A stretch of DNA of 64,000 nucleotides from Escherichia phage 4MG: the sequence record NC_022968.1. The stretch is one strand, 5' to 3'. The notes below the pieces were generated by a model. That model was not told the DNA's origin. It saw nothing but the letters and a program-made list of their open reading frames with translations, and made no database searches. The translations under genes were made by a program, and so were the position numbers. Positions 58,243 to 60,064 of the stretch are shown piece by piece (the stretch's first letter is position 1; each line of letters starts with the position of its first letter).

Positions 58243-58643
58243 TTCAACCCCAGGCTCTCGTTATAAATATCCACAAAGTCATTATCCAGACCCTTCTTCT
58301 TTCCGTTATCAGAGTTTCGATAAGCGTCTTGCTTCTTGTCAAGCTCTGATTGCAGTTTTGCATTCTTTGCTTTCTCTTCCTCAAGTTGCTTACTTAACTC
58401 ATCAGAAGACTTCTGCTGGTTGTCTTTGTAGTCATGATTGGCATTCTTGTTTTCCTGTTGTTTGGCAGTCCACTTATCATCAGTATCTTTCACACCACGA
58501 TTGTAAGAAGCTGTGATTTGGTCATTGTACCAGTGCTTAGTATAAACCGCCCCGGAGAACAGGGCGATTGCTAAGATTGCTGCGATGACTAATTTAGTGT
58601 TGTTCCTGATAAAGGCAACCACCATTCTAACTACATCTATCAT
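58239..58643 (-). CDS. i-spanin (inner-membrane component)
   Basis: 134 aa; N-terminal TM; charged coiled-coil periplasmic domain; ATGA overlap with upstream gene. Confidence 0.6.
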   Translation of the reverse strand: MIDVVRMVVAFIRNNTKLVIAAILAIALFSGAVYTKHWYNDQITASYNRGVKDTDDKWTAKQQENKNANHDYKDNQQKSSDELSKQLEEEKAKNAKLQSELDKKQDAYRNSDNGKKKGLDNDFVDIYNESLGLK

Positions 58644-60064
58644 GAGATATCCCCATTTGATTCAATAAGACGTTCTATTCTGAGAAGAGTTTCTTCATCG
58701 TCAAGGATCTCAACCTGTGCATCATCATACGCGATCTTTGTTGGATCAAGCACGGTCACCTCAAGCAAAACAGCGCCCGGTTTGGAGAGTCTGTCGCCCC
58801 AACGTCCTGTTTTACCCTTCTCACCCCAAGACTTATAAACATCGTATGCTTCTTTCTCATCTACATACAGATTCATTACATCAAGGAATTCATCAGCAGG
58901 TTTTGTCTCCAGAAGCCCTACAGACTGGTTTGGGTTGGTTGCCTGCATCAGGTAGAAATTCTCTGCTGGACAAACACCCCATAACTTTGAGAAGTAAGGC
59001 CTGCCCGTATTCATACGGAGGCGTTGATACATAGAGAAGATGTTTTCCGGCTTTAACCCTCGGTATCGGCTGAACTGACCCTTTTCAGATTCCGTTGCGA
59101 TGCTGGAGATCATGTAATCACCCGCTGAATCCAGTTTATCAAATAATAGGTCAAATGAAAATGGTTTAGTTTCATTGAAAAGCTCTTCAACGTTTGTACC
59201 ATACATCCCACTCAGGTGTGCCTTGGCATCTTCCCACGATTCAATATTAAGACCTGTCGCTGCGATACCGAGCTTCATTGTTTCACGACGAGAGATCGTG
59301 TACCCACGGGCGCGGTATTTGTCTGAGCGAAGCATACTGATAATGGGGTAATCTGTGCCGGGATTAATCACCAGCACCTTTTGTGCTAAGTGCTTGAGGA
59401 ATCGGCTATCAAACTCCCATTTCTCGCTGGCAAAGCTGAAGGCACCCATATTGATCGTAAAGTCAAATTTATCGAAGATCGCCTGAGAATCCTGGAACAC
59501 ATCGAAAGCAATAACCTGCATCACCGGGGACGACTGATTGGTGAACATAACGCTCTTATCCGTCATACCGAGGTTGTAGATGTTGTCTGGTTTATTATCT
59601 TCAGTTGCCTTCTGGATAGCCTTGAATACATTCCCGTTTCTCTCCCGGAGCAGAGAATACAGCTTTGAAAGCTGAGATGCGGAGAGCGGGGTTGGTTGGC
59701 GCTCTTTCTTCTCACATACCAATGCGTTCACGTAATCTTTGTGGCAACCAGGGTTATCCAGTTCAAGGAAATAGACGAACGAACGTTTTGAATTGCCCCA
59801 GTTGTTACTTGTAGGGGTTAGGTCGCTGTCACCAATAAGTAGACCGCGATCAGTCATGTATGCGAGGAAGATCTCTAAGTTTTCCCATGATGGGAAGTAG
59901 AGGTCAAGGTCGTTGACTTCACGATTAGAGAACAGAGAGGTGAGCGTACCACCCGCAATACGGGCATCAAGACGCTTGAGGATCTCGTACACGCCCTTAG
60001 GGATCAGGCTGTTGAGGATATTGAATTCACGCTGGAAGTCTTCTTTTGGGTAAATATGAAGCAT
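58640..60064 (-). CDS. hypothetical protein with Pol-beta-type nucleotidyltransferase-like GG...DxD motif, in the endolysin position
   Basis: 474 aa; AGGTLTSLFSNREVNDLDL (GG-12 aa-DxD spacing as in CCA-adding enzymes); no lysozyme/amidase motif recognised by eye. Confidence 0.4.
   Translation of the reverse strand: MLHIYPKEDFQREFNILNSLIPKGVYEILKRLDARIAGGTLTSLFSNREVNDLDLYFPSWENLEIFLAYMTDRGLLIGDSDLTPTSNNWGNSKRSFVYFLELDNPGCHKDYVNALVCEKKERQPTPLSASQLSKLYSLLRERNGNVFKAIQKATEDNKPDNIYNLGMTDKSVMFTNQSSPVMQVIAFDVFQDSQAIFDKFDFTINMGAFSFASEKWEFDSRFLKHLAQKVLVINPGTDYPIISMLRSDKYRARGYTISRRETMKLGIAATGLNIESWEDAKAHLSGMYGTNVEELFNETKPFSFDLLFDKLDSAGDYMISSIATESEKGQFSRYRGLKPENIFSMYQRLRMNTGRPYFSKLWGVCPAENFYLMQATNPNQSVGLLETKPADEFLDVMNLYVDEKEAYDVYKSWGEKGKTGRWGDRLSKPGAVLLEVTVLDPTKIAYDDAQVEILDDEETLLRIERLIESNGDIS

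Follow-up and report, generated by a model that had tools for sequence, protein, structure and literature searches.

A Gad2-family gene between the tRNA array and the spanin genes of Escherichia phage 4MG

The gene X824_gp077 of Escherichia phage 4MG, so far unannotated, belongs to the Gad2 (Gabija anti-defence 2) family. Its family membership, fold, conserved active-site core and operon structure were established by analysis of the window, which is the whole 64,000-nucleotide stretch of NC_022968.1 examined here (Table 1). The best overall explanation, which we consider probable, is that this Gad2-family protein combines a class-II-type nucleotidyltransferase with an ADP-ribosyltransferase (ART)-like module and would have an enzymatic anti-Gabija role. 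A protein that is hypothetical in every source gains a function-level label in this way. The gene is kept across many Vequintavirinae that are candidates for therapy and whose hosts are E. coli, Salmonella, Klebsiella, Cronobacter, Enterobacter and Erwinia. Should its product indeed block Gabija, this would have a bearing on the host range of the Vequintavirinae that carry it.

Table 1. Features of the X824_gp077 locus (positions in the window)
Feature	Position	Strand	Evidence
Upstream tRNA array (23 ARAGORN tRNAs and one found by Rfam only)	60179..63824	-	ARAGORN, Rfam
Intrinsic-terminator-like hairpin, 7 G-C pairs then TTTTCTTTTT	60115..60132	-	pattern scan
Shine-Dalgarno AAGGAG, 6 nt upstream of ATG	60071..60076	-	read from sequence
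Gad2-family gene, 474 aa	58640..60064	-	ORF list, ATG start
Motif A, residues 37-57, AGG-x12-DLD-YF	59894..59956	-	conservation, BLASTP, hhalign
Clade-specific head-domain insertion, residues 58-167	59564..59893	-	alignment, length distribution across 108 members, pLDDT
Remainder of head domain, residues 168-235	59360..59563	-	conservation, hhalign, weak phrog_1614 match
Motif-B-like FDFTINM, residues 200-206, invariant D201	59447-59467	-	conservation, hhalign
Helical neck and linker, residues 236-334	59063..59359	-	
C-terminal domain, residues 335-474	58643..59062	-	
i-spanin, start overlaps Gad2-like stop (ATGA)	58239..58643	-	phrog_4297, E 1.4e-51
o-spanin (lipoprotein), start overlaps i-spanin stop codon	57952..58242	-	phrog_1267, E 3.6e-23
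Terminator-like hairpin after o-spanin	57919..57946	-	pattern scan

Membership of the Gad2 family

The open reading frame named in the original prediction was confirmed from the ORF list, on the minus strand and with an ATG start. An exact-sequence look-up shows that its product is 100% identical to the Escherichia phage 4MG hypothetical protein X824_gp077 (YP_008857293.1), and a PHROGs search matches it to phrog_16176 along its full length (E 1.4e-263). The SPbetaL7 gene annotated as Gad2 is matched by tblastn at E 1e-25. With BLASTP SPbetaL7 Gad2 (GAD2_BPSP7 in Swiss-Prot) is matched at E 5e-33, with 32% identity over query residues 111-306, and in a second HSP the motif-A segment is 50% identical to Gad2 residues 3-52. 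The alignment of Gad2 to the family starts at its residue 1 and runs to its C-terminus, and Gad2 has the same two-part architecture. Both ends of the profile are covered by 106 of the 195 matched family stretches. X824_gp077 and SPbetaL7 Gad2 share the N-terminal motif AGG-x-TSLF-N-E-ND-D-YF and the same ten invariant core residues. In both of them a nucleotidyltransferase is followed by a variable C-terminal domain, and both are encoded by a phage or prophage.

The family is represented in Pfam by PF26128 (PF26128.2), which is precomputed on all 57 of 57 homologues, one of them 99% identical to X824_gp077. Assignment of X824_gp077 to PF26128 is by way of these homologues, as the NCBIfam and Pfam copies used contain no matching model. 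Searches with the single protein and with the family profile gave no meaningful match among Pfam-A, NCBIfam or PDB sequences (none at all for the profile against PDB sequences); the Pfam copy that was searched lacks PF26128, and Gad2 itself is also without a match there. A literature search for PF26128 yielded no paper.

The function of Gad2 is known from genetic work. SPbetaL7 becomes sensitive to Gabija when Gad2 is knocked out, and a Brevibacillus prophage homologue of Gad2 also blocks Gabija; anti-Gabija activity has been demonstrated for these two proteins only (10.1101/2023.05.01.538930). A nucleotidyltransferase fold was predicted for Gad2 in the same study (10.1101/2023.05.01.538930). 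How Gad2 acts has yet to be explained (PMC12904381).

Nucleotidyltransferase head and C-terminal domain

Ten residues of the predicted enzyme domain are invariant in the Gad2 family. The original prediction pointed to GG-12 aa-DLD in the peptide AGGTLTSLFSNREVNDLDL, and this peptide is found at residues 37-55. The motif is not due to chance, as every one of the 108 aligned full-length family sequences, Gad2 included, has G38, G39, D52 and D54, and a nucleotidyltransferase fold is obtained for this region. D52 and D54 are the two predicted metal-binding aspartates. Q183, D201, T237, R246, K249 and Y250 are likewise identical in all 108 sequences, as is Y56. Judging by this alignment, the putative catalytic core is under selection. 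Structure prediction, which had been proposed as a check, gave a nucleotidyltransferase fold.

The gap between F57 and T168 is 111 residues in X824_gp077 versus 24 in SPbetaL7 Gad2, and the insertion is partly predicted with low confidence (pLDDT <50 at residues 116-124). The remainder of the head domain contains the invariant Q183, and residues 182-209 have a weak match to phrog_1614, "nucleotidyltransferase". The neck and linker contain the invariant T237, R246, K249 and Y250 and a near-invariant Y288-G289.

The predicted structure of residues 335-474 appears to have a fold like that of the ADP-ribosyltransferase superfamily. Members of this superfamily (SCOP d.166.1) include BC2332-like proteins, Tpt1/KptA, diphtheria-toxin-like proteins and PARP catalytic domains, and the tRNA 2'-phosphotransferase Tpt1 is among the top-scoring matches. 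None of the catalytic motifs H-Y-E, R-S-E and Tpt1 R-H-R-R is conserved over residues 335-474, where conservation reaches at most 69%. The candidate ART triad is variable in the family and is G-Y-E in X824_gp077, which has G363 where Gad2 and most other members have lysine. An active role as an ADP-ribosyltransferase or Tpt1 was rejected because the catalytic residues are not conserved. The domain is most likely a binding or specificity module.

Relation to CCA-adding enzymes and to the tRNA array

The nearest solved folds to the model of X824_gp077 are class-II enzymes, namely poly(A) polymerase I (3AQL) and CCA-, CC- and A-adding enzymes (3H37, 1MIV, 4WBY, 1OU5). The Pol-beta-type head with hGG-x(9-13)-DhD and the helical neck are present in X824_gp077. 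With hhalign in local mode the family and class-II profiles align at E 2.3e-4 (probability 44%), while global mode gave no useful alignment. Motif A pairs with VGGAVRD…DRD of class-II CCA enzymes, and FDKFDFTINM pairs with LSRRDLTINA of class-II enzymes. The non-canonical poly(A) polymerases TENT5/FAM46 (6JYJ, 8EXF) differ in being eukaryotic, in having no detectable sequence similarity and in their other C-terminal parts.

These likenesses raise the question of whether X824_gp077 is a tRNA or RNA 3'-end nucleotidyltransferase, CCA-adding-like or tailing, that serves the adjacent array or repairs damaged tRNAs, possibly countering tRNA-directed nucleases. Such a role is favored by the nearest folds and by the GG-x12-DxD spacing and DFTIN, which correspond to motifs A and B of class-II enzymes, but we consider it unlikely. 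RRD of motif B recognizes the ribose and triphosphate in class-II enzymes and is invariant in their alignment, whereas X824_gp077 has K198, F199 and D201 and shares D-F-T-I-N alone. In class-II enzymes EDxxR of motif D acts as the protein template when C and A are added. Its ED is unmatched in the hhalign alignment, and the templating Arg corresponds to Ser243. The third carboxylate (class-II E57, ~35 residues after DxD) has no counterpart among conserved acidic residues on the matching strand; the invariant Q183 and D201 are candidates for its place. That no canonical third carboxylate could be assigned also counts against the preferred explanation. The lack of conservation of motif-B RR, of the ED…R templating motif and of the third carboxylate argues against a tRNA enzyme, as does the extent of the structural alignment. 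Only ~190-200 residues (head and neck) can be aligned with enzymes of 344-517 residues, no tRNA-binding body or tail domains were found, and the C-terminal domain has the different, ART-like fold. The PolyA_pol head model PF01743 also fails to match X824_gp077 at E<=1; the same Pfam library scores the CCA enzyme of phage EC152 at E 5.7e-21.

It had been claimed that several tRNAs of the adjacent array lack an encoded CCA, but 21 of the 23 ARAGORN tRNAs end in CCA. One exception is a tRNA-Ser called with a 3' end that directly adjoins the following tRNA, and the other is a pseudo-tRNA; the 24th tRNA (Rfam, 60179-60257) also has CCA after it. A genuine CCA enzyme with PolyA_pol+HD is encoded by EC152, the closest relative, and many other phages with Gad2 homologues also carry a CCA enzyme. 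Membership of X824_gp077 among the CCA-adding enzymes was rejected on the unconserved motif-B RR and motif-D residues, the missing body and tail, the CCA enzyme of EC152, and the CCA encoded by the array tRNAs.

In nine of nine loci the tRNA array is immediately followed by the X824_gp077 orthologue, in favor of a tRNA enzyme, while any tRNA is present within 6 kb in just seven of 70 distant family loci. Adjacency to tRNAs was rejected as a family trait on this comparison, and a strong terminator stands between the array and X824_gp077. The inference that a gene next to tRNAs encodes a tRNA enzyme fails for this phage group. Further points in favor are the presence of Tpt1 among the best C-terminal matches, set against the unconserved Tpt1-like catalytic residues, and the position of the GAP32 homologue, 1.5 kb from the RNA ligase RnlA. 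Expression of SPbetaL7 Gad2 is toxic (10.1101/2023.05.01.538930), as is possible for an RNA-tailing enzyme. Also, the OLD nuclease, which is the founder of its family and a relative of GajA, cuts tRNAs (PMC12445682).

Spanin operon and possible targets

X824_gp077 is the first gene of a terminator-flanked cassette that is conserved in Seunavirus-type Vequintavirinae. Its coupling through ATGA to the i-spanin and o-spanin genes was correctly predicted: the TGA stop overlaps the next ATG (…TCATGATAG…), and an Rz-like i-spanin is followed by an o-spanin. The overlap with the i-spanin is kept in nine of nine orthologue loci. The second hairpin closes the three-gene cassette upstream of TerL. From its position in the cassette and its translational coupling to two spanin genes, X824_gp077 is probably expressed with the late genes.

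The spanin genes do not mark the place of an endolysin in this group. The original prediction offered a novel endolysin or a tRNA-repair enzyme or nucleotidyltransferase; the nucleotidyltransferase fold stands, and the endolysin and CCA-adding readings do not. A novel endolysin or other lysis component coexpressed with the spanins would explain the ATGA coupling to the i-spanin in 9/9 orthologue loci and the absence of another adjacent lysis gene within the window. It is nevertheless extremely improbable, as the protein has a confident nucleotidyltransferase fold and an ART-like domain and matches no muralytic family or fold. No motif of a lysozyme, transglycosylase, amidase or peptidase had been seen, and in agreement with this no peptidoglycan-hydrolase family is matched in Pfam, PHROGs or NCBIfam, nor was homology to a known endolysin family found. 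There is no obvious hydrophobic N-terminal segment in the sequence or the secondary structure of the model. In the Vequintavirinae the lysis genes are dispersed and the spanins lie outside any lysis cassette (PMC7344957), contrary to the assumption that an endolysin would normally be found here. The GH19 endolysin of EC152 is encoded at 34469-35023, ~35 kb away. This endolysin, the CCA enzyme and an RlaP nucleotidyltransferase of EC152 have no homologue in the 64-kb window, and none of them resembles X824_gp077. Homologues of X824_gp077 also occur in Bacillus phages, which are themselves without spanins. The endolysin reading was rejected on the lack of a muralytic match, the location of the EC152 GH19 enzyme and the dispersal of the lysis genes. 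Proximity to spanins does not indicate an endolysin in these phages.

Frameshifts interrupt the orthologue in PVP-SE1 and Ro1, and the equivalent slot of Certrevirus CB7 is occupied by an unrelated gene. X824_gp077 is therefore an accessory gene outside the lysis machinery, and the PVP-SE1 frameshift and the CB7 replacement likewise argue against an endolysin. The gene in the CB7 slot, CB7_251, encodes a virion protein. It was rejected as an orthologue because it is unrelated to X824_gp077, so its presence in the virion is no evidence that X824_gp077 is packaged.

Several differences from SPbetaL7 Gad2 bear on the target. In the enzyme domain X824_gp077 shares just ~32% identity with Gad2, in the C-terminal domain the identity is lower still, and ~87 extra residues follow the DxD strand, so its target could differ. 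Its phage has a Gram-negative host, and the gene follows a tRNA array in a late operon with spanin and terminase genes, unlike the SPbeta anti-Gabija locus. Such a late-looking operon is usually atypical for early-acting anti-defence genes and was counted against the anti-Gabija reading. The same holds for the family, which has 4425 representatives at E<=1e-3, a size and diversity that suggest more than a single-target inhibitor. These two points, together with the clade-specific insertion and the high variability of the C-terminal domain, as expected of a specificity module, would fit a Gad2-family enzyme that has been retargeted to another defence or host process, for example another nuclease system or a general modification of nucleic-acid ends or proteins. 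With late expression, delivery in the virion might apply, and the CB7 positional equivalent is a virion protein, although CB7_251 is uninformative for the reason given above. We regard retargeting as rather unlikely, if slightly less so than a tRNA enzyme. No alternative target is directly supported, and the strict conservation of the enzymatic core between X824_gp077 and validated Gad2 favors the same chemistry.

The fold of X824_gp077 gives a hint at how the Gad2 family may work. Its N-terminal module is a class-II-type (poly(A) polymerase or CCA-adding-enzyme-like) head and neck in which the GG…DxD metal site is invariant. Under the preferred anti-Gabija reading, the protein, like validated Gad2, would enzymatically neutralize a host nuclease-based defence (Gabija, GajAB). 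The likeliest chemistry would be transfer of a nucleotide from an NTP to the 3'-OH of a nucleic-acid end, or possibly to a defence protein. Three observations narrow the hypotheses for Gad2 to nucleic-acid 3'-end transfer: a class-II-type domain that lacks the motifs for CCA templating, one Gln and one Asp, both invariant, that possibly replace the third carboxylate, and a variable ART-like C-terminal domain. A bolder proposal, which is speculative and in its full form improbable, is that the family consists of class-II terminal nucleotidyltransferases with a degenerate ART-fold module that defeat Gabija by modifying nucleic-acid 3' ends. The substrate could be an end of the phage DNA such as Gabija senses, or an RNA or tRNA that GajA, a nuclease of the OLD family, attacks; in Vequintavirinae the protein would be made late with the spanins and perhaps carried into the next cell. 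Gad1, which is likewise considered an inhibitor of Gabija, has no sequence similarity to X824_gp077. In contrast to the proposed enzyme, Gad1 is non-enzymatic and acts by stoichiometric binding, caging the GajAB complex.

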